A stretch of 64,000 nucleotides of DNA, taken from positions 1 through 64,000 of the IMG/VR virus record IMGVR_UViG_3300042308_001049; one strand, given 5' to 3'. This DNA is from a virus. The translations under genes and the position numbers were made by a program. Positions 5,817-64,000 of the stretch are shown here, one piece after another (the stretch's first letter is position 1; every line of letters begins with the position of its first letter). Under the pieces are notes generated by a model. The model had not been told where the DNA came from, made no database searches, and saw only the letters and a list, made by a program, of their open reading frames with translations.

Positions 5817-7108
5817 TGAAACCAGTTTTTGTAATAAGTTGCCCAATTGACACTTATAGTGGATATGGAGCACGTTCTAGAGATATTGTTAAAGCAATTA
5901 TTAAGACTGATAAATATGATGTAAAAGTCTTACCACAACGTTGGGGAGCTACACCTTGGGGTTTTATTGAAGACCATAAAGATGAATGGGGATTTTTACA
6001 ATCACATATCTTAACTGAACCTAAGTTAAATCAAAAACCTGAAATTTGGGCTCAAATCACTATTCCAAATGAATTCCAACCAGTTGGAAAATATAATATT
6101 GGTATTACAGCAGGTATTGAAACTACAGCTGTAAAAGGTGAATGGATTGAAGGTTGTAACCGAATGAATCTTGTAATCACATCTTCAGAGTTTGCTAAAA
6201 AAACTTTTGAATCTATGAATTACGAGATTAAAAATCAACAAGGTCAGTTACAAGGTCATTTAAAACTTACAACACCTATTGAAGTTATTTTTGAAGGTGC
6301 TAATACAGATCTTTATAAAATAATTGAACAGAATCAAATTAAAACTATTAATTTAGATTCTATTAAAGAATCATTTGCTTATTTATTTGTAGGCCATTGG
6401 ACACAAGGAGATTTTGGTGAGGATAGAAAGAATGTTTCTTTACTAATTAAAGCTTTTTATGAAATATTTAAAAATAAAAAGAATAAACCTGCTTTAATTT
6501 TAAAAACTAGTGGTGCTGGTTCATCTTACATGGACCGTGATGTTATTTTAGATAAAATTAATAAAATTAAAAAATCAGTTAATTCTAAAGATCTTCCTAA
6601 TATCTACTTACTTCATGGTGATTTTAATGATTCTGAAGTAAATGAGTTATATAACCATTCTAAAGTAAAAGCTATGGTTAGTTTAACTAAAGGTGAAGGT
6701 TTTGGTCGCCCATTACTTGAATTTAGTTTAGTTAAAAAACCAATTATAGCTTCAGGGTGGTCGGCTCACACTGAGTTTTTAGATCCTAATTTTACAGTCA
6801 CTTTAAAAGGTGAAGTTAAACCAGTAGGCCCATCTGCTGTAAATGATTGGGTTATAGCTGAATCTCAATGGTTTAATGTTGATTATAGTCAAGTAGGACA
6901 TTATCTTAAAGATGTATTTGAAAATTATAAAAAATACACTGATGGAGCTAAACGTCAAGCATTTAAAAGTAAAAACGAATTTAGCTGGGATAAAATGTTT
7001 GAAAAAGTAAATCAAACATTATCTCAACACATCCCAGAATTTCCTAAAGAAATTCAACTTCAACTGCCTAAATTACAACTTCCTAAACTAGAAAAAATAA
7101 ATGGATAA
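5816..7108 (+). CDS. GT-B (GT4-like) glycosyltransferase
   Basis: SGYG, DRKN, GEGFGRPLLE (EX7E) motifs. Confidence 0.9.
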   Translation: MKPVFVISCPIDTYSGYGARSRDIVKAIIKTDKYDVKVLPQRWGATPWGFIEDHKDEWGFLQSHILTEPKLNQKPEIWAQITIPNEFQPVGKYNIGITAGIETTAVKGEWIEGCNRMNLVITSSEFAKKTFESMNYEIKNQQGQLQGHLKLTTPIEVIFEGANTDLYKIIEQNQIKTINLDSIKESFAYLFVGHWTQGDFGEDRKNVSLLIKAFYEIFKNKKNKPALILKTSGAGSSYMDRDVILDKINKIKKSVNSKDLPNIYLLHGDFNDSEVNELYNHSKVKAMVSLTKGEGFGRPLLEFSLVKKPIIASGWSAHTEFLDPNFTVTLKGEVKPVGPSAVNDWVIAESQWFNVDYSQVGHYLKDVFENYKKYTDGAKRQAFKSKNEFSWDKMFEKVNQTLSQHIPEFPKEIQLQLPKLQLPKLEKING

Positions 7109-22195: not shown

Positions 22196-22244
22196 TTGGT
22201 TACACTAAAAATAGATGTTATATTTAGCATGTTAAATAAGAGTT
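22196..22244 (+). promoter_or_regulatory. Early-type promoter (TTTG-N20-TATATTTA) plus leader
   Basis: tttggttacactaaaaatagatgttatatttag...gttATG. Confidence 0.75.
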
Positions 22245-32805: not shown

Positions 32806-32860
32806 TTTGGCTTCGTAAGAGAGGGATGTTATATTTAGGTGTAATTAAAAAATAAATGTT

Positions 32861-33040
32861 ATGAGTATTGAAAACAGTTTCTCAGGTATCACTTTCCAAA
32901 TGGCTAAGGCGTTAGGTAAGTATCAAGGCTTTGCTCAGTTCTTGAAAGAAGGAAATGACACAATGACTAAAGAACAGATCATTGCTCGTTTAATTGAGAT
33001 TGATGAGGAGTTTGAGGCCAATGTTAAGAAAAAATCATAG
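32861..33040 (+). CDS. 59 aa early protein (paralog A)
   Basis: MSIENSF...AKALGKYQG...TKEQIIARL. Confidence 0.8.
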   Translation: MSIENSFSGITFQMAKALGKYQGFAQFLKEGNDTMTKEQIIARLIEIDEEFEANVKKKS

Positions 33041-33095
33041 GCTTGGCTACCCAAAAGATAGATGTTATATTTAGGTGTAATTAAAAATTAAGGTT

Positions 33096-33275
33096 ATGGG
33101 AAACGAATTCATCAACATGCTCCAAACAGCAATGCGTTTTGCAAGTGCATTAGGTAAGCACGAGGGTAATATCAAATTTATCCTAAATGAACAAGATAAT
33201 CTCTCCAAAGAAGATATTATTCGCTACTTACAGGAGACATATGATGAAGTAAATTCAATACTTTCTCAGGAATAA
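33096..33275 (+). CDS. 59 aa early protein (paralog B)
   Basis: MGNEFIN...ASALGKHEG...SKEDIIRYL. Confidence 0.8.
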   Translation: MGNEFINMLQTAMRFASALGKHEGNIKFILNEQDNLSKEDIIRYLQETYDEVNSILSQE

Positions 33276-33337
33276 GTTTGGCTACCCAAAAGATAGATGT
33301 TATATTTAGGTGTAATTAAAAATTAAAAATAAAGGTT

Positions 33338-33502
33338 ATGGCAAACATGAGTTATTGCAGGTTCGAAAACACTTACCACGATTTGGTAGATTGTTTTGAC
33401 AACATTTGGAGTGAAGCTGAGAATGAAAGAGATGAGCGTTACCGTCAACGAATGATTGAGTTTTTGAAAGAACGGATTGATGATATTGAAGAAATGGAGT
33501 GA
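33338..33502 (+). CDS. 54 aa early protein (NMSYCRFENT type)
   Basis: MANMSYCRFENTYHDLVDC; own promoter. Confidence 0.8.
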   Translation: MANMSYCRFENTYHDLVDCFDNIWSEAENERDERYRQRMIEFLKERIDDIEEME

Positions 33503-33562
33503 GGGGCTTGGCCCCCCACTTTTTTCTTATTATATTTAGACGTAATTAAAAATTAAATGGTT

Positions 33563-33793
33563 ATGAAGATTATTAAAGTTACAAGTCTTAAAGACAAATC
33601 ATCAATATACATAAATGTTGAACAAATAGGGCATTTTTTTAGAGTTCCTAAAAGAATGAATTACGGTCGTGTTGAGGAAGAAGAAAATACCAGAGTAGGA
33701 GTTACAACTCATAATAATGGTGGATTTTCAATAGTTGAAACTCCTGAAACATTGTTAAAGTTAATTGATAAGGTTTTGGCTCCTCAAAAGTAG
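33563..33793 (+). CDS. FlbD-like small early protein
   Basis: MKIIKVT...IYINVEQI...IVETPETL; start at GGTTATG. Confidence 0.7.
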   Translation: MKIIKVTSLKDKSSIYINVEQIGHFFRVPKRMNYGRVEEEENTRVGVTTHNNGGFSIVETPETLLKLIDKVLAPQK

Positions 33794-33829
33794 TTTGTTA
33801 TATTTAGACGTAATTAAAAATTAAAGGTT

Positions 33830-33901
33830 ATGAAAAAGCAAGCATTTGTTATCGCGGTGATCACATTTATCTCAACTGCTATTGTGTTGTACGCAAAATA
33901 A
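33830..33901 (+). CDS. 23 aa membrane peptide
   Basis: MKKQAFVIAVITFISTAIVLYAK exactly fills the space between two promoter repeats. Confidence 0.7.
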   Translation: MKKQAFVIAVITFISTAIVLYAK

Positions 33902-33958
33902 GGTTTGGCTACATTAAAAATAGATGTTATATTTAGGTGTAATTAAAAATTAAAGGTT

Positions 33959-34126
33959 ATGAAACATCCAGAGTATTCAAGAGCAAATAATGAGTATCAA
34001 GGTCGTAGTGAAGCGCCCCGTATTCCAAGAGAAGCAAGATTAGCTTTGAAACAGAGAATGATTGATTTTGGAGTGCATTTGAAGGCACTTGAAGAGAAGA
34101 TTAAGAGAGAGAAGCCAGTGTATTAA
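33959..34126 (+). CDS. 55 aa basic early protein
   Basis: MKHPEYSRAN...; own promoter. Confidence 0.78.
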   Translation: MKHPEYSRANNEYQGRSEAPRIPREARLALKQRMIDFGVHLKALEEKIKREKPVY

Positions 34127-34127
34127 G

Positions 34128-34220
34128 GTCACTTAAGAGGTAAGTGATACAGGGGGGCGGGGGCCCCCCTTTTATATTCTCCCTGGGGCTACTTACAGAC
34201 TCCTGCCTAGGGTTCCCCAC
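34128..34220 (-). ncRNA. Candidate small RNA from reverse-oriented early promoter
   Basis: Minus-strand CTTG-N20-TATATTTAGGTG (34253-34218) followed by GC-rich, ORF-less, hairpin-forming sequence. Confidence 0.5.
34151..34173 (+). terminator. Intrinsic terminator
   Basis: AGGGGGGC-GGGG-GCCCCCCT-TTT. Confidence 0.75.
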
Positions 34221-34309
34221 CTAAATATACGTAAATTTTTCCGGCAAGCCAAGCTTGGCTAACAGGGGGATTATTCGTATATTTAAATGTAATTAAAAAC
34301 GAAACGGTT

Positions 34310-34465
34310 ATGTATCATTTAAATTGCCCTTACTACAAAAAGAAGTTTGAGACCATTTATGAGTTGTTAGATGATATTGTGTTGTCAGGAATGGACCCTA
34401 ACTATACAGTATACAAAGATGGTAAGAGTGTAGGGACTAAAGCTATTCACTTAATTCAGTTTTGA
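34310..34465 (+). CDS. 51 aa early protein
   Basis: MYHLNCPYY...SGMDPNY. Confidence 0.78.
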   Translation: MYHLNCPYYKKKFETIYELLDDIVLSGMDPNYTVYKDGKSVGTKAIHLIQF

Positions 34466-34521
34466 TTTGGTTACCCAAAATATATTTTGTATATTTAAAT
34501 GTAATTAAAAATTAAATGGTT

Positions 34522-34713
34522 ATGGAAGATAATAAAGTTGTAGTAGACACAGTAATTGATTTGCTAAACAATATGGATTGTGATGGTGAAACAATGCAAT
34601 TTATACTTAAAAAAGTAGGAATGGAATGGCAGATGTTAAGGCAGTTGATGTTAACTATGCCTATAGAACAGGTAGAATATCTGATAGACGAACGGAAGGA
34701 TTTGGGTATTTAA
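34522..34713 (+). CDS. 63 aa early protein
   Basis: Own promoter; C-terminus overlaps next promoter. Confidence 0.78.
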   Translation: MEDNKVVVDTVIDLLNNMDCDGETMQFILKKVGMEWQMLRQLMLTMPIEQVEYLIDERKDLGI

Positions 34714-34752
34714 GAGAACGTTCGTATATTTAATCAAATAAAAATAATGGTT

Positions 34753-34920
34753 ATGAAAATAGGAGACAAAGTAAAGTATGATGGTGAAGCTCACCTAATT
34801 GTAAACATTGTAGATGGTTACCCAGTAGTGGTACCTATGAGTGTAATTGATGATGAGTGTTTTATCATTGAGTATGAAGGTGATGGGTGTCACGAATTTG
34901 ATTTGATCCCGATAAAATAA
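34753..34920 (+). CDS. 55 aa acidic early protein (SH3/KOW-like start)
   Basis: MKIGDKVKY... Confidence 0.75.
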   Translation: MKIGDKVKYDGEAHLIVNIVDGYPVVVPMSVIDDECFIIEYEGDGCHEFDLIPIK

Positions 34921-34926
34921 ATGGTT

Positions 34927-35145
34927 ATGAGTAAAATTAAGTTTTTAAAAGAAATGTTTATTGAATGTTGTATTGGATTTGATGATTTTGGAGATCCAAT
35001 AATGGAAGAGGAAAAAGTATTAAAAGGTGAGGAATTTGAAGTAGATATTGTTAGTGATGAAGTTGATGAAGATATTATCCAAATTCAATTTGGGAATGGT
35101 TCTGTTAGTTTTATTGATAGAAATGATATTGAAATAGAGGACTAA
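34927..35145 (+). CDS. Highly acidic early protein
   Basis: GGTTATG leader; D/E-rich. Confidence 0.78.
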   Translation: MSKIKFLKEMFIECCIGFDDFGDPIMEEEKVLKGEEFEVDIVSDEVDEDIIQIQFGNGSVSFIDRNDIEIED

Positions 35146-35222
35146 TAAAATAAGGGTGGGGAGCAGGTTTGGCTTCGCCAGAGAGGGATGTTATATTTAG
35201 ACGTAATTAAAAATTAAAGGTT

Positions 35223-35714
35223 ATGAAAGCAAAAGAAATGTCAGAAGAGGTTTATGATGAGTTGATCCGTTTGGATTACCACCGCAAAGTGAATTCAGTG
35301 TATGAAGTTAACACCTCAGTAGATTTTAGTAGTTTTGATAAAGAAACTCAAAAGGCAATTAGTACGTTTCCTGTTCTTATGTTTAATCCAGATACTGACT
35401 TAATGGATATTGAGAATCTAGATGGGGAACAGCAGTTTTATATTTTGTTTACTCGAAATAGAAACTATTTGATTGATACTCAAGGTTATACTTACCCACG
35501 TTATATTATTGGGTTGAATAACTTGAAGTTCGAAGAAGATGAAGACGACATCTACGAACGTATGGAAGGCTTGGTTCGTATTGCCGACAGTAAGATTTTT
35601 GATGAGGTAACAAAGAGTTTGGCTTTCGAATTAAATAAAGAAGACTTTGACCACGAAGATATTGTAAACTATTTGTTTATGAAGGTTCAATTAGCGCTTG
35701 GCTCACACCGATAA
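35223..35714 (+). CDS. Acidic early protein, 163 aa
   Basis: Own promoter; YLIDTQGYTYPRY motif. Confidence 0.82.
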   Translation: MKAKEMSEEVYDELIRLDYHRKVNSVYEVNTSVDFSSFDKETQKAISTFPVLMFNPDTDLMDIENLDGEQQFYILFTRNRNYLIDTQGYTYPRYIIGLNNLKFEEDEDDIYERMEGLVRIADSKIFDEVTKSLAFELNKEDFDHEDIVNYLFMKVQLALGSHR

Positions 35715-35752
35715 TTTTATTATATTTAGGTGTAATTAAAAAATAAATGGTT

Positions 35753-35917
35753 ATGAATGGAATGTTTTATGTAGTGGTTGAACAAGATGTGGCCTCAGTT
35801 GTAAATGCTAGTTTGGCTTTGACTCTCGAAATGGATCCATATTTTGATGGTGAATTGTATGGTGCTTATTCAAGTTATGAACAGGCTGCTGATCATGCCA
35901 ACCAGGTCAATCTCTAA
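35753..35917 (+). CDS. 54 aa early protein
   Basis: MNGMFYVVVE... Confidence 0.75.
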   Translation: MNGMFYVVVEQDVASVVNASLALTLEMDPYFDGELYGAYSSYEQAADHANQVNL

Positions 35918-35980
35918 AGATTGATTTGGCTACCCAGAATATTTTTGTTATATTTAAATGTAATTAAAAATTAAAAGGTT

Positions 35981-36676
35981 ATGAAAGAGCAACTGATTGA
36001 GCAAATTGAAGGTTTAAAAGCCATCAAAGAAGAAGCACGCAATAACAAGGCTATGAAAATTAGTTCTTTGTTTCATGAGGTGTTTGATTTGAAAGATGTA
36101 GAATATTCAAATCTGAATATTGGTTCTGAACGGGCTGAGTTTAGCTTCAATAATGAATATTCTGGTCAGTTTACAGTTTTGTATTACGAGACATATGGTG
36201 ATGATGAGACCAAATTAGAAGTAAGTGTACCATCATCTTACAGTGAAGATGTTTCACGTTTGATTCAGTGGGGTAAGATTGCAGAACAAATTGAATTGAA
36301 GGGTAGTGAGTTTTTAACTAAACTAAAAGTACTCCGAAACGAATATAAAGCAGGAATTGAGGTCACTAACAACATGTTGTATGAGGCTGAAACTAGATTG
36401 AAGTTTATTCAAAATAAAGAAAATGCAGTTGATTTAGAATTGACTAAAACGGCTTTGAGAACTGTAGGTCATCAATTTGAAACAGGTCATTGGGTGCAAG
36501 TAGGAGCAATGGATAGTGTTTATACTGACAGTATCCGGATTGAACAAACACCAGGTAAGAAAACATATAAAGTTCATTATGTAAACTTAGGCCGCCCGGC
36601 TACATATGAACGAGTACGAGAAATGTATATCAATAAATTGGCTCAAGAATTGGTAAATAACTCTAAAAACGCCTAA
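35981..36676 (+). CDS. Early protein, 231 aa
   Basis: Own promoter; coiled-coil segments. Confidence 0.82.
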   Translation: MKEQLIEQIEGLKAIKEEARNNKAMKISSLFHEVFDLKDVEYSNLNIGSERAEFSFNNEYSGQFTVLYYETYGDDETKLEVSVPSSYSEDVSRLIQWGKIAEQIELKGSEFLTKLKVLRNEYKAGIEVTNNMLYEAETRLKFIQNKENAVDLELTKTALRTVGHQFETGHWVQVGAMDSVYTDSIRIEQTPGKKTYKVHYVNLGRPATYERVREMYINKLAQELVNNSKNA

Positions 36677-36678
36677 CC

Positions 36679-36810
36679 ATGAACCAGCAAGAATTAACCA
36701 CCAAGTTGATTGAATTGAAATCACAGGTAACAGGCACAACACCTTACGCATACGGTTTGTTAGACGGTTTAACAATGGCAATAGAAGAAATAGAGAGTCC
36801 CCGATCATAA
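36679..36810 (+). CDS. 43 aa protein
   Basis: MNQQELTTKLIEL...YGLLDGLTMAIEEIESPRS; stop lies in anti-leader hairpin. Confidence 0.6.
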   Translation: MNQQELTTKLIELKSQVTGTTPYAYGLLDGLTMAIEEIESPRS

Positions 36811-36842
36811 CCATTTTTAATTACACCCGCGTTATGGGGACT
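36796..36842 (+). ncRNA. Hairpin complementary to the shared early leader (candidate antisense RNA element)
   Basis: AGTCCC(CGAT)CATAAC-loop CATTTTTAATTACACCCGC-GTTATG GGGACT; 36806-36827 is the reverse complement of GGTGTAATTAAAAATGGTTATG. Confidence 0.55.
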
Positions 36843-36843
36843 A

Positions 36844-36873
36844 GGGGAGCCAGGTTTGGCTCCCCACTCTTTT
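36844..36873 (+). terminator. Terminator hairpin overlapping the -33 box of next promoter
   Basis: GGGGAGCCA-GGTT-TGGCTCCCC-actctttt. Confidence 0.7.
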
Positions 36874-36909
36874 ATTGTTATATTTAGACGTAATTAAAAA
36901 TTAAAGGTT

Positions 36910-37176
36910 ATGCTGTTAGTAGAGTTTAAAGAAATGGTTAACGACGGTAAAATATTCTCCGTTGTATTTACTAAGAAGGATGGTACGATCCGAAAAATGG
37001 TAGCGCGGTTAGGGGTGCGTAAGCATCTTAAGGGAGGCGAATTGAAATACGACGCCGCTGCCCGCAATTTATTGCCTGTATTTGATATGGAGAAAGAAGA
37101 ATATCGTATGATTAATGTTTCAACCATACAAGAAATTAAAGTGGGTGGTGCTAAGATTGATTTGGCTACGCTATAA
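36910..37176 (+). CDS. SH3/Sm-like beta-barrel protein (DUF2693/WYL-like)
   Basis: FSVVFTKKDGTIRKM...VFDMEKEEYRMIN. Confidence 0.75.
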   Translation: MLLVEFKEMVNDGKIFSVVFTKKDGTIRKMVARLGVRKHLKGGELKYDAAARNLLPVFDMEKEEYRMINVSTIQEIKVGGAKIDLATL

Positions 37177-37215
37177 TTTGATGTTATATTTAGACGTAAT
37201 TAAAAATTAAGTGTT

Positions 37216-37461
37216 ATGAAAAAAGTGCAGTTTAAAAGTGACGTTTATGGTTTCGTTTACGATTCAGTTTATGGCGAAGTTAGTAAAGTGTTTAATACAC
37301 CTTTAAATGAATCAGAATTAGAATTAATTGAGAGTGTATTAAGTGAAGATGATTGTATTTTCACAGATATTGATTCAGTAAATGCAGTGTTTGAATTTGA
37401 TGAGAATAGTTTGGAGTGTGATGTTGAGGGTTTGAATACAGTATTAGAGTACGCAGAATAA
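37216..37461 (+). CDS. Highly acidic early protein
   Basis: 81 aa; own promoter. Confidence 0.8.
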   Translation: MKKVQFKSDVYGFVYDSVYGEVSKVFNTPLNESELELIESVLSEDDCIFTDIDSVNAVFEFDENSLECDVEGLNTVLEYAE

Positions 37462-37470
37462 AATAAAAAC

Positions 37471-37507
37471 AAAGGTGGTGATGAGCTTGGCTCACGCCAC
37501 CTTTTTT
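37471..37507 (+). terminator. Terminator/promoter hybrid, near-duplicated at 37822-37858
   Basis: AAAGGTGGTG-A-TGAGC-TTG-GCTCA-CGCCACCTTT-TTT. Confidence 0.75.
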
Positions 37508-37542
37508 ATTATATTTAAACGTAATTAAAAAATTAAAAGGTT

Positions 37543-37812
37543 ATGAAAATGATTGATTTAAATGTTGCTTTTAGAGAGGCGATGGATGTAGCATCTTATG
37601 AAGATGTATTGGGTATTATAGAGAGTTATGAGGATGAAAGTATATTAGATGACTTTAAACTTGAGTTTGTTGAAGGTGAAGATATTAGTAAAGATGACTA
37701 TAGTTACTTCTCTATTAGTTTGATAGATGATATAAGTGAAGTTGGTTATATACAGGCCAATTGGATTTATATTTGGGATAAGGATATTTTTGAAAAGACT
37801 GAGTTACTTTAA
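37543..37812 (+). CDS. Highly acidic early protein
   Basis: 89 aa; flanked by ~70-bp direct repeats. Confidence 0.8.
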   Translation: MKMIDLNVAFREAMDVASYEDVLGIIESYEDESILDDFKLEFVEGEDISKDDYSYFSISLIDDISEVGYIQANWIYIWDKDIFEKTELL

Positions 37813-37891
37813 AATAAAAACAAAGGTGGCGATGGGCTTGGCTCACGCCACCTTTTTTATTATATTTAACCGTAATTAAAAATTAATGGTT

Positions 37892-38152
37892 ATGAAAGCA
37901 AAAGGAATTAAAGCAATGATGACGTTGCTGGAGAAGAAGGGTTGCAAGGTGTGTGGCACCACAGAGGATTTTTACGGCCGCCATAACAGCACACCAGGCG
38001 TTTGGATCGCAGCAGACCACACACCTGAATTGTTCAACTACTGGAGTTCAAATGGAGTATTGATTAGTGGTAAGTTGAATAGGGCAGTTCAGAAAGCCGG
38101 ATGGTGGTTTGAGTGGCACGATCCAGGAACGATTATGGTATGGCCACACTAA
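37892..38152 (+). CDS. Early protein
   Basis: GWWFEWHDPGT C-terminal motif. Confidence 0.8.
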   Translation: MKAKGIKAMMTLLEKKGCKVCGTTEDFYGRHNSTPGVWIAADHTPELFNYWSSNGVLISGKLNRAVQKAGWWFEWHDPGTIMVWPH

Positions 38153-38231
38153 CCAGGGTGGGGAGCCGGTTTGGCTCCCCGCTTATTTTTTGTTATATTT
38201 AGATGTAATTAAAAATTAAAAACAAAAGGTT

Positions 38232-38426
38232 ATGACAGTTCAAGAATTGATTGATAAGTTGAGTCAGGTTAAAAACAAAAACTTAGAAGTAGTAGTTCAG
38301 GTTACTGACCCAACAGATTGGGAGTACAACAACTCAATTGAATTTACTGAGGTTCAAAGTGTATTATTGGTTGAGGATGATGATGATGAGACTGAAGTAT
38401 TTGTAATTAATGGGGGTGATGTTTGA
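38232..38426 (+). CDS. Acidic early protein (MTVQELI type)
   Basis: 64 aa; own promoter. Confidence 0.8.
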   Translation: MTVQELIDKLSQVKNKNLEVVVQVTDPTDWEYNNSIEFTEVQSVLLVEDDDDETEVFVINGGDV

Positions 38427-38490
38427 TCACCCCTTATTTTTTTACCCCAAAAAGGGATGTTATATTTAGACGTAATTAAAAATAATGGTT

Positions 38491-38823
38491 ATGAAAAACG
38501 AAAAAATGATCGTGAATGAAGAGTTGATCGGTAAATACATCAACCAGGTATTGTGGAGCGATGTTAATCCGGTAGGCAAAATTATCGCAATCAAAGGCAA
38601 AACCAAAGTATTGATTCAACCGGTTTGTGCCAGCAAAAATAAAGCCAAAATGGAATTCGTACCGGGTGGTTTTTCAGCGGTGTGTTTGAATCAAAATGAA
38701 CAACATTACGATTTCATGGAGGTGGGAGAGGTATTTGAAACGACTCTGAGCCATGCCAAGATGAAAAAAGCGTTCTGGAATATTGACGACGCACCATATA
38801 AGCAATATGATTATAACTTCTAA
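38491..38823 (+). CDS. Early protein
   Basis: FVPGGFSAVC.NQ..Q, YDYNF. Confidence 0.8.
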   Translation: MKNEKMIVNEELIGKYINQVLWSDVNPVGKIIAIKGKTKVLIQPVCASKNKAKMEFVPGGFSAVCLNQNEQHYDFMEVGEVFETTLSHAKMKKAFWNIDDAPYKQYDYNF

Positions 38824-38836
38824 ATAGAAGATACGG

Positions 38837-38873
38837 AGAGGGGAAAGGGCCGAAAGGCTCTTTCTTCTTTTTT
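38837..38873 (+). terminator. Intrinsic terminator closing the array
   Basis: AAAGGGCC-GAAA-GGCTCTTT with extension and T tract. Confidence 0.8.
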
Positions 38874-39165
38874 GGAAAAGAGGGGTGTACGTGGTACGTG
38901 ATATATACTTTATATGTGGTATATCCCCCCGCGCGCTGTTATCCATACATGCTTGGATACTGGGAAAGAATTTTTTTGATGTAAGGATGAAATAAAGGTA
39001 ACTTCCACCATCGGATAGTATATACTTATATATTTGCACCGCCCACCATACCCCCATACCACACCATCCTATACCATGCCCATCCCCCACACCCACACCC
39101 CAATTTCCGGATTTGCCCTTTTACCCATTTTTTCCAGCTCCCTAAATCCTTCTTTCTTAAAAAAG
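38874..39165. other. Non-coding block with C-rich tract
   Basis: GTACGTGGTAC shared with 32175; CCCATCCCCCACACCCACACCCC (minus-strand G4 motif, 39079-39101). Confidence 0.5.
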
Positions 39166-46052: not shown

Positions 46053-46124
46053 TGTGGGATAGAGCAGAGGTAGCTCGCAAGGCTCATAACCTTGAGGTCG
46101 GGGGTTCGATTCCCTCTCCCGCTA
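46053..46124 (+). tRNA. tRNA-Met(CAT), initiator-like
   Basis: CAAGG-CTCATAA-CCTTG; T1:T72 mismatch. Confidence 0.88.
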
Positions 46125-61869: not shown

Positions 61870-64000
61870 ATGGGTGAACAAAGAATAGTAAATAAACGTC
61901 TTGACACTGATGGAGGTGCTTGGATTGATAGACGTTTGGCTTTCAATAAGGAAAACCTTTCAGTCTTAGATCAAGGTTGGAATGATTATGCTTTAACTAT
62001 TGATGAGTTTGGGGTTACTTCTTTAACTCCTTTAAGTAATCAGTTTTTTTGTATTCAATATGAGTATACTTCTAGTATTGATACTTTACTTAACCCATCA
62101 AGTAGCCACTTTTCTTTAAATAGTTTAACTTCATCATTAGTAACCACAGCTTCCTTTAACTATACTAGTTCAGCAGGATTACCTATGCTGTCATATTTTC
62201 AAATGACAGACCCAGTTTATAGTGGATCTTTAACTATTGTTAATAAAACTGATGCAAGTAAATTTGTAATTTTTGAATTTGATGGTTTTGTTAATAAAAC
62301 ATCATTTGGAGAATTTCATTTTGTTTCATCTTCAAATAATACTAGACTCTCCTCTTCAGCTTTTATAACTGATATATTTACAGATGATACTCCTGTTTGT
62401 ATAAGTTTAGATTTTTTTGGAGCTGGGGCAGGTGGGGGAGGTAGTGTAGGTCCACAAGGAGCACAGGGTGCACAGGGTGCCCAAGGTTCCCAAGGTACTC
62501 AGGGTGCCCAAGGTCTACAAGGCGCCCAAGGCGCTCAAGGACTACAAGGTGCTCAAGGAGCACAAGGCGCAAATGGTTCACAAGGTGCACAAGGAGGAAC
62601 AGGTGCCCAAGGCTCTCAAGGTCTACAAGGAGCACAAGGTGCTCAAGGAGATATAGGAGCCCAAGGTGCCCAAGGAACACAAGGTCTACAAGGAGCACAA
62701 GGCGCTCAAGGAGACACAGGTGCTCAAGGAGCACAGGGTGCAACTGGTTCACAAGGTGCAACTGGTTCACAAGGCGCACAAGGAGACACAGGAGCTCAAG
62801 GTGCACAAGGTGCTCAAGGAGATACAGGTGCCCAAGGCGCTCAAGGAGATATAGGAGCACAAGGTGCCCAAGGCGCTACAGGTGCCCAAGGAGGAACAGG
62901 AGCACAAGGTGCAACAGGCGCTCAAGGCGCACAGGGTGCTATAGGTGCCCAAGGTACTCAGGGTTTACAAGGCGCTCAAGGTGCGCAGGGAGACATAGGA
63001 GCTCAAGGTGCACAAGGTAATACAGGTGCACAAGGTGCTCAAGGCGCTCAAGGTGCGCAGGGAGACATAGGAGCTCAAGGTGCACAAGGTAATACAGGTG
63101 CACAAGGTGCTCAAGGCGTGCAAGGTGCCCAAGGAGGAACAGGTGCACAAGGTGCTCAAGGTCTACAAGGCGCTCAAGGTGCTCAAGGCGCCCAAGGAGA
63201 CATAGGAGCTCAAGGCGCCCAAGGTGCTACAGGTGCTCAAGGTTTACAAGGCGCCCAAGGCGCCCAAGGAGACACAGGAGCACAAGGTGCTCAAGGTGCT
63301 CAAGGAGATACAGGTGCTCAAGGTTTACAAGGCGCCCAAGGAGACACAGGAGCACAAGGCGCACAAGGTTTACAAGGCGCTCAAGGCGCACAAGGTTTAC
63401 AAGGCGCTCAAGGCGCCCAAGGAGACATAGGAGCTCAAGGTGCTCAAGGTTTACAAGGCGCCCAAGGCGCCCAAGGAGACATAGGAGCTCAAGGCGCCCA
63501 AGGAGACATAGGAGCTCAAGGTGCTCAAGGTTTACAAGGCGCCCAAGGCGCCCAAGGAGACATAGGAGCTCAAGGCGCCCAAGGTTTACAAGGCGCTCAA
63601 GGTGCACAAGGTTTACAAGGTGCTCAAGGTGCTCAGGGAGCACAAGGTCTACAAGGAGCACAGGGCGCCCAAGGTGCACAAGGAGGAACAGGTGCTCAAG
63701 GTGCGCAGGGAGCACAAGGTCTACAAGGAGCACAGGGCGCCCAAGGTGCACAAGGAGGAACAGGTGCCCAAGGTGCTCAGGGAGCACAAGGAGCACAAGG
63801 TTTACAAGGAGCTCAAGGCGCTCAAGGAGCCACTGGTGCTCAAGGTGCACAGGGAGCTCAAGGTGCTCAAGGAGGAACAGGAGCTCAAGGTGCTCAAGGT
63901 TTACAAGGAGCACAGGGTGCACAGGGTGCGACAGGCTCCCAAGGTGCTCAGGGTGCTCAAGGTGCTCAAGGAGGAACAGGAGCACAAGGAGCACAAGGTT
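61870..64000 (+). CDS. Collagen-like fibre protein (3' truncated by window)
   Basis: ATG 61870, ~190 aa head then G-X-Y from 62449 to window end; absent from ORF track because no stop in window. Confidence 0.92.
62449..64000 (+). repeat. 9-bp-period collagen repeat (GGN GCN CAA)
   Basis: ~170 triplets dominated by GAQ, with GLQ, GDT, GDI, GGT. Confidence 0.95.

Follow-up and report, generated by a model that had tools for sequence, protein, structure and literature searches.

A single antisense copy of the shared early leader at the 3′ end of an early transcription unit in a T4-like phage: a candidate anti-leader RNA element

We analysed the first 64 kb (the window) of the 130,563-base viral contig IMGVR_UViG_3300042308_001049, whose completeness is estimated at 81%, and describe a short plus-strand element at 36805–36827 that is complementary to the 5′ leader shared by an array of early genes and lies just ahead of the terminator of one of their transcription units. 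The plus strand carries all long open reading frames (ORFs) of the window except two at its far end, together with 13 transfer RNA (tRNA) genes. A baseplate-wedge protein and an ATP-dependent DNA ligase serve as T4-like markers, their best cultured matches being T4-like and other large myoviruses; no close cultured relative was found by blastn or tblastn against phage GenBank records.

The early-gene array occupies positions 32830–38491 (plus strand) and consists of 17 cassettes, each followed by a small ORF. A cassette is made up of a −35 box TTGGCT, a 17-nucleotide (nt) spacer, a TG-extended −10 box TATATT, the leader GTAATTAAAAA, an A/T-rich spacer, GGTTATG and the small ORF, and every plus-strand copy conforms to this layout. 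Many of the −35 boxes are embedded in the terminator hairpin that precedes them, in its stem or its loop; some cassettes lack a hairpin. Repeated stem-loops with an early sigma-70-type promoter before small ORFs in a T4-like phage are the mark of the promoter-early stem-loop (PeSL) cassettes known from T4-type phages (Arbiol et al., 2010, PMC2839356; Comeau et al., 2014, PMC4122927), which likewise place small early ORFs, each behind a stem-loop or terminator and an early promoter, in a plastic region of T4-like genomes and are shuffled between relatives. In relatives of the present phage, different genes stand behind the same junction. Moreover, contigs from wetland RNA libraries, 90–99% identical in parts to window positions 34000–39000, join different cassettes at leader or promoter borders (34495 to 37880, 34743 to 38284, 34863 to 35716), so that related phages appear to carry the same modules in other orders, a PeSL-like shuffling. 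The leader GTAATTAAAAA occurs 17 times on the plus strand (32841–38472) and once on the minus strand (36814–36824), with the same counts in the window and in the whole contig, and a backwards-read contig yields two forward and no reverse copies. With at most one mismatch there are 31 matches, against 9.81 ± 2.70 in shuffled sequences, none of 100 shuffles reaching 31. The single minus-strand copy marks the anti-leader, which is an addition to the array and not itself a PeSL; a word search of the two PeSL papers gave no mention of an inverted leader copy or a leader-complementary RNA.

The unit that carries the anti-leader has its promoter at 35926–35954 (TTGGCT-17-TATATT with the TG extension), a transcription start predicted at about 35960 and a leader with AUG at 35960–35983. 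Its first gene (35981–36676) encodes a 231-aa protein of no assigned family with 36 homologues at 52–94% identity, for which Pfam, PHROG and PDB sequences gave no match, Foldseek against PDB gave none at E ≤ 0.001, and the AlphaFold model has a mean confidence (pLDDT) of 73.9. A 43-aa ORF (36679–36810) starts 2 nt past its stop codon and ends in a TAA that lies inside the CATAAC of the anti-leader. Hairpin 1 (36796–36842) then overlaps the end of this ORF and contains the anti-leader core TCATAACCATTTTTAATTACACC (36805–36827), the complement of GGTGTAATTAAAAATGGTTATGA. It is followed by an intrinsic terminator at 36844–36875, GGGGAGCC/GGCTCCCC and then CTCTTTTATT, of which the terminator-like hairpin proper spans 36844–36865 and is followed by ACTCTTTTAT. 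This terminator holds the −35 box of the next cassette (36856–36912; promoter 36856–36884, leader 36890–36912), all features named being on the plus strand.

As the preliminary description of this DNA had stated, the plus strand at 36806–36827 reads CATAACCATTTTTAATTACACC, the exact reverse complement of GGTGTAATTAAAAATGGTTATG. Two anti-leader blocks can be distinguished, AAUUACAC and CAUAACC. A strand-aware search of the 130-kb contig for CATAAC..ATTAC returned one antisense site and 18 sense leaders, which together with the exact leader counts upholds the proposal of a single coding-strand element whose complement is the leader with start codon found throughout the array (one antisense against 17–18 sense copies). 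The described fold was also recovered for the window, with a stem of AGUCCCC/GGGGACU and CAUAAC/GUUAUG and a 16-nt loop that contains AUUUUUAAUUACAC of the anti-leader; hairpin and terminator together reach −32.2 kcal/mol (z = −4.35), and none of 200 shuffled sequences was as stable. The core ends 17 nt ahead of the terminator hairpin, so that the element sits at the 3′ end of a transcript in the seed-before-terminator layout of small RNAs (sRNAs) derived from 3′ untranslated regions (3′UTRs). There is no promoter-like site on the minus strand between 36828 and 37300, again as claimed, and no internal promoter-like site was found for the element itself. It is not a cis-encoded antisense RNA: an RNA of that class is read from the strand facing its target, whereas this one is on the coding strand and has its targets at other places. 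Rfam searches of window positions 36500–37100 returned only chance-level matches (E = 4.5–9.4, far below gathering), and none for the two related loci L155 and L113. On the plus strand of the contig GTTATG occurs 84 times and CATAAC 12 times.

Predicted pairing with the leaders is strong relative to other gene starts. An 86-nt 3′ fragment, cofolded with the 17 leaders, gave a net free-energy change (ddG) after the cost of unfolding of −8.9 kcal/mol on average (range −4.1 to −14.3), compared with −1.75 ± 1.79 kcal/mol for 131 other gene starts. When the reverse complements of leaders were aligned to the coding strand, one best site was shared by 18 of 21 leaders in the window, 22 of 27 in L048, 20 of 26 in L050 and 6 of 10 in L051. 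We also scored all 36-nt windows of each record by their median duplex energy with up to eight randomly chosen leaders. The element was the best window in seven of eight records: here (z = −8.9, 1497 windows), in L039 (z = −7.0, 889), L044 (z = −6.3, 460), L048 (z = −6.4, 1498), L051 (z = −7.9, 1356), L113 (z = −6.5, 269) and L155, whose two copies ranked first and second (z = −8.4 and −7.2, 891); in the eighth, L050, it ranked second (z = −5.1, 1506). We also note that the terminator tail CUCUUUU (36865–36875) can pair with AAAGAG at 35984–35990 (codons 2–3 of the 231-aa gene); this may explain why the unit's own leader outscores identical leaders of other genes, or may be chance.

Relatives were obtained only from a metagenome scan, since a viral contig collection (searched with the 231-aa protein and with an alignment) and genome contigs contained no related loci. 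The scan gave 15 loci with 53–87% identical 231-aa homologues, two of them cut inside the gene, and in all 13 with downstream sequence the small ORF (42–45 aa, with mostly synonymous change), exactly one anti-leader, a hairpin and a terminator stand at the same place. Besides the window they represent two lineages, L035 and a group B of 12 near-identical loci, and the anti-leader is kept although the 231-aa homologue is only 53–58% identical. A comparison of the small ORFs in the window and in group B shows 22 of 36 third codon positions changed, with synonymous sites near saturation, while the blocks TCATAACC, AATTACAC and TTATGGGGACTAGGG are identical, so that the seed is more conserved than its surroundings. 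The 5′ stem arm AGTCCCCG is likewise kept despite different reading frames (..S P R S* versus ..Q S P S*). The group-B core TCATAACCTTCAATTACAC is the complement of GTGTAATTGAAGGTTATGA, and the group-B leaders mostly read GTAATT(G/A)AAAA(A)TGAAGGTTATG; for the group-B anti-leader (UUC) the binding energy is −16.0 kcal/mol with leaders of its own group (GAA) but only −11.3 kcal/mol with those of the window (p = 1.5e-6). The gene downstream varies among relatives, which indicates that the element belongs to the upstream unit. We conclude that this is very probably a selected element that is complementary to the leaders.

The element also recurs in more distant phages. A leader-pattern scan of viral contigs returned 24 contigs, mostly with single matches, some of which proved to be distant kin, with arrays whose promoters are related (TTCGTATATTTAAGT..) and whose leaders share the (G)GTTATG end but not the sequence ahead of it. 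In these lineages (C–F) a GC hairpin and a U-rich stretch follow the element, within about 20 nt where checked. The seed-before-terminator layout is found in L051, L155 and L113, while in L048 the hairpin is visible by fold only; a simple terminator scanner calls the hairpin in the window and L051. The upstream context differs while the module persists: it is a small ORF in the window, a 3′UTR in L020, where the element starts 15 nt past the stop of a 62-aa ORF, and a tRNA-like gene in L051 (2745–2815; Rfam tRNA 38.3 bits, gathering 29; missed by ARAGORN), past which the element starts after 13 nt. As the L051 anti-leader lies directly 3′ of this gene, tRNA 3′ processing would plausibly free it. 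The tRNA-like gene itself stands between a 123-aa gene and the anti-leader, and a GGGGAG..CTCCCC hairpin precedes it.

In lineages C–F the element opens with a small hairpin whose 7–9-bp stem is of lineage-specific sequence and always closes a loop YYUCAUAAC, so that UCAUAAC is in the loop, the opposite of the arrangement in the window. Even the two L155 copies differ in stem (AAAUG/CAUUU versus AAGUG/CACUU). An alignment of eight sequences, in which the L051 row pairs in a register shifted by 2 nt and the L103 and L101 rows do not come from evident arrays, has 83.9% of cells paired and six of seven pairs changed on both sides; its covariation score of 0.556 compares with 0.176 ± 0.07 for shuffles, none of 500 reaching it, and with 0.02–0.20 for slid controls. 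The loop start YUCA fits the YUNR U-turn motif of antisense-RNA recognition loops, reportedly described by Franch et al. in 1999. The preliminary description had named a loop-exposed anti-leader with a covarying stem in related phages as a check. It is borne out in part, as the anti-leader is kept in 13 of 13 relatives and a covarying stem is found in C–F, but the loop-exposed geometry is not kept; its toehold arrangement, with anti-GUAAUU in the loop and anti-GUUAUG held by a GUUAUG decoy, is confined to the window lineage and does not generalise.

Several candidate sites were set aside or fall outside evident arrays. Site 12033 of L052 lies inside a long ORF with no hairpin after it and was judged a chance match. 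In L016/L138 and L011/L027 nothing beyond the anti-start block TCATAACCG is present, placed ahead of a terminator or within a hairpin loop, and this is too short to call; in L011 (4778–4830) and L027 (2944–2996) two tandem TCATAACCGC copies, with the anti-start block only, precede an early promoter, and a CCCTC/GAGGG hairpin has the second copy in its loop. Strong terminator-like hairpins of 10–14 bp with a loop YUCAUAAC and then UUUUUAAUUA occur in L101 (minus strand, 6957–6986, the same as in L126) and L103 (9288–9317), in stretches with no evident early array.

In every lineage the complementarity reaches from AUG+1 to +4 back to a point 1–3 nt from the predicted transcription start, and it leaves out the −10 box and promoter throughout. 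That it stops near the predicted start with the promoter excluded argues for a function at the RNA level, since one would expect a cassette inverted at the DNA level to bring its promoter with it. We regard the element as a real, conserved RNA-level feature that is apparently undescribed, and it probably works by RNA pairing with the leaders. That the last ~80 nt of the early unit (composed of the 231-aa gene, the 43-aa gene, hairpin and terminator) form an anti-leader RNA module directed to the entire shared 5′ untranslated leader, which runs from near the transcription start to AUG+1, is a reading to which we give about equal weight for and against. In the mechanism we propose, a 3′-terminal fragment shielded by the two hairpins would accumulate and base-pair with the 5′ ends of early mRNAs, covering the A-rich leader and the GGUUAUG start region, whereby 30S binding would be blocked and a substrate for a double-strand RNase possibly created; early protein synthesis would thereby be shut off or damped by an RNA. 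Within the parental mRNA, too, such pairing could take place, 3′ end onto 5′ leader, and in all conceivable modes (in trans, by fold-back or upon read-through) an A-rich unstructured start region would be occluded. Several features favour the trans mode: there is a single copy, it matches the consensus of the array and not one particular gene, its upstream contexts vary, and in L051 it has the position of a tRNA trailer. Repression of early translation mainly in trans appears to us possible, at or somewhat short of an even chance.

A number of observations weigh against this interpretation. The transcription starts were predicted from the −10 box and not mapped. One anti-leader faces about 18 strongly promoted leaders, so that a global effect would need much greater stability or catalytic turnover. 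Contigs from four wetland metatranscriptome runs (6–12% of words) leave 36672–36838 uncovered and provide no usable ends, which is uninformative either way. Neither RegA (PF01818) nor RegB (PF10715), the T4 proteins whose task the element might take over, was found in the contig, which speaks for the interpretation, but at 81% completeness their absence is not proven. As to specificity, window and group-B leaders are bound equally well by the window anti-leader, and a matrix of cross-lineage energies is not diagonal: it is only in the window and L155 that the anti-leader is the best binder of its own leader set. Energies are inflated because U-rich terminator flanks pair trivially with A-rich leaders; local-alignment scores against shuffles are significant for the window alone and weak or negative for lineage C, and an exact 7-mer bipartite test was negative for L048 and L050. 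Among 11 further arrays, whose loci span only parts of their contigs, the top window holds CATAACC in only six and CAT with a U-run and AATTATAC in one, and is unremarkable in four. Finally, the terminator scanner fails to call the L048 hairpin, and the local toehold/decoy structure differs between lineages, the decoy pairing of the window being replaced in group B by AGUCCCCGU/AUGGGGACU.

Two alternatives keep the function in RNA but restrict it to a neighbouring gene. The anti-leader might pair only with its own 5′ leader (35960–35983) and form a panhandle of the 916-nt mRNA that switches off or stabilises the 231-aa/43-aa operon alone, with ribosomes that terminate at the UAA inside the element holding the pairing open during translation. 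Both the minimum free energy structure and the partition function of the full window mRNA do pair leader and anti-leader (20 bp, with 36805–36824 as the partner; expected 19.7 bp), although folds of 900-nt RNAs are unreliable, and the same is predicted in L039, L040 and L044, i.e., at four of nine loci, while the other five retain the local hairpin instead. The own leader ranks first to third in predicted ddG at nine of nine loci, which represent only two independent lineages, and the stop of the coupled 43-aa ORF lies inside the element as this scheme would have it; yet variation in own leaders (e.g., GTAATAG in L033 and L039) is not mirrored in the anti-leader, lineages C–F have different genes upstream, and in L051 a tRNA-like gene stands between mRNA and anti-leader, where processing would separate them. 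We therefore hold an exclusive fold-back role to be unlikely. Sequestration upon read-through, as in the T4 genes e, soc, 49 and I-TevI (PMC3014915), would have the anti-leader pair with the next leader (36890–36912), so that this gene is translated only from its own promoter. The geometry fits these precedents, with the arm (36806–36827) upstream of the proximal promoter (36856–36884) and the leader downstream of its start, but local hairpins win over the forced long-range pairing (−41.3 versus −34.8 kcal/mol under a crude constraint) and the next leader ranks only 12th of 17. Moreover, it is the upstream operon that the element accompanies in relatives, the gene downstream being variable, the next cassette of L051 is ~170 nt further on, and with both promoters of the same early type there is no temporal logic, all of which makes this scheme highly improbable.

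The remaining alternatives deny the element a role as leader-directed RNA. PeSL-type arrays undergo recombination at such motifs (PMC2839356, PMC4122927), leader borders are points at which cassettes are joined in RNA-library contigs from related phages (e.g., 34495 to 37880, 34743 to 38284), and the complementarity runs 1–3 nt past the predicted transcription start, so that the anti-leader might be an inverted cassette fragment left by recombination and kept by gene conversion or as a recombination or protein-binding site. We consider this improbable, less so than read-through but more so than fold-back alone, given that the inverted copy lacks the promoter in every lineage, is present in one or two copies per record, each with a GC hairpin after it, is accompanied by a covarying stem and is conserved at saturating divergence. 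The spacer has furthermore been shortened differently in each lineage, which conversion would erase, and an inverted repeat of the leaders would promote harmful inversions. A hairpin with no relation to the leaders, be it a tandem terminator, a signal for processing or a structure that imitates the anticodon arm of tRNA-Met (loop YUCAUAA) so as to bind a tRNA-recognising protein or the 30S P site, is suggested by UCAUAACC, which is also the anticodon loop and 3′ stem of the phage tRNA-Met (window 46085, L016 8759), and by the UCAUAAC-loop hairpins with U runs outside obvious arrays (L101/L126, L103). This explanation is very doubtful, marginally more so than read-through, as the leader complementarity reaches well past the loop, through the complement of the A-run to AAUUAYAC, the loops have 9–11 nt and not 7, and the window lineage has CAUAAC in the stem. 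Nearly refuted, finally, is an inverted cassette with a translated minus-strand ORF (36587–36814, 75 aa), for which a leader-like sequence and an ATG do open a frame of 73–75 codons in the window: no minus-strand promoter serves it, nearly all long window ORFs are on the plus strand, and the frame has 73, 22 and 32 codons of unrelated sequence in three lineages (six in lineage C, by eye). The overlapping plus-strand ORF is under purifying selection, with 18 synonymous and 6 non-synonymous changes among 24 differing codons and 9/2/22 differences by codon position (window versus group B), in line with the earlier argument against a simple inverted cassette.

With respect to the phage tRNA-Met (46053–46125, CATAACC at 46085; L016 8759), its anticodon arm is CAAGG-CUCAUAA-CCUUG; AAGGUUAUGA of the early leaders is the complement of 10 nt in this arm (UCAUAACCUU), a stretch that the anti-leader core reproduces exactly. 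This complementarity could reflect an extended codon–anticodon pairing at initiation or a coincidence. Downstream of the element, the gene at 36910–37176 encodes an 88-aa WYL_2 protein (Sm-like SH3 barrel, PF10902, E = 2.5e-10). Sm-like folds can be RNA chaperones; the gene is not conserved at this position in relatives. Promoters of the same type (TTTGGCT-N17-TATATTTA) occur with other leaders outside the array at 22219, 23986, 25129, 34725, 40252, 42547, 44553 and 90544, and nearly all the genes behind them still end their leader in GTTATG. We take this motif to fit the Bacteroidota-type −33/−7 promoter (TTTG..TAnnTTTG) as well. At the end of the window (62001–64000, within an ORF starting at 61870) the G+C fraction is 0.51, compared with 0.28–0.41 elsewhere in the window, and the AT skew is 0.23.

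Among known systems, those that seem closest by analogy in their logic are the c4 RNA of P1, sRNAs derived from 3′UTRs and tRNA trailers, and the fold-back element of hok. In hok mRNA, part of a toxin–antitoxin system, the 3′-terminal fbi element pairs with the 5′ translation start of the same mRNA, and 3′ processing activates the mRNA; a similar 3′–5′ pairing is what is predicted at four of nine loci here, in no toxin–antitoxin context. The tRNA-trailer small RNA 3′ETS-leuZ is said to have its seed ahead of the intrinsic terminator of the tRNA, and c4 RNA reportedly acts by pairing with short complementary stretches at a ribosome-binding region. Like the anti-leader, c4 of P1/P7 is a phage RNA on the same strand and in the same unit as coding genes and not a true cis-antisense RNA (Citron & Schuster, 1990, as cited in PMC8198154), but it has only one target operon, icd-ant, ahead of which it lies, and its role is in lysogenic immunity, whereas here the element is at the 3′ end in a lytic T4-like phage and faces at least 17 separate early transcripts. 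Bacterial 3′UTR-derived sRNAs such as GlnZ (PMC9731577) share the seed a few nt before the terminator of the parental mRNA and possible release by processing; these and 3′ETS-leuZ are host regulators of a few unrelated targets, and in our case release of the fragment is a prediction. The inhibitory structures of T4 e, soc, 49 and I-TevI also have a stretch upstream of a proximal promoter that complements a translation start downstream (PMC3014915), but are gene-specific and distinguish early read-through RNA from the product of a late promoter, while the arm described here matches all cassettes, stays with the upstream operon and is not favoured to fold over the long range. In its proposed role, silencing many early mRNAs at their start regions, the element resembles the T4 translational repressor RegA and the endoribonuclease RegB, which cuts at early Shine-Dalgarno sites (PMC3014915), with the difference that these are proteins and the proposed agent is an RNA. 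The RegA site aaAAUUGUUAUGUAA obtained by in vitro selection (SELEX) resembles the present leaders (PMC3014915).

According to a 2010 review of post-transcriptional control in T4, no small trans-acting regulatory RNA had been functionally characterised in that phage, and related genomes might offer candidates (PMC3014915). Searches of the literature on phage sRNAs that act on early mRNAs or translation start regions (including the accessible part of PMC10914365; subscription journals and supplementary files were outside the scope) brought up no comparable element. The novelty of the anti-leader lies in its complement, a leader common to an entire temporal class of phage genes. Tentatively, and with somewhat less than even confidence, we propose that a family of T4-like phages, probably of freshwater and wetland bacteria, uses a dedicated anti-leader RNA, present in one or two copies at the 3′ end of an early transcript or tRNA, which would accumulate during infection and silence every early mRNA at once. 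How the early phase ends in lytic phages is only partly understood, and the element is a candidate trans-acting RNA with a clear predicted target set, namely every cassette of the array. As a compact switch in which one RNA addresses many genes, it might also find use in synthetic biology. If the proposal is true, it would be an RNA counterpart of the T4 proteins RegA and RegB and the first trans-acting regulatory RNA to control a temporal gene class in a lytic T4-like phage. The need to stay addressable would in that case partly account for why the leader blocks GUAAUU and GGUUAUG are so strictly conserved, which would supply a functional reason for the uniform leaders of PeSL-type arrays.

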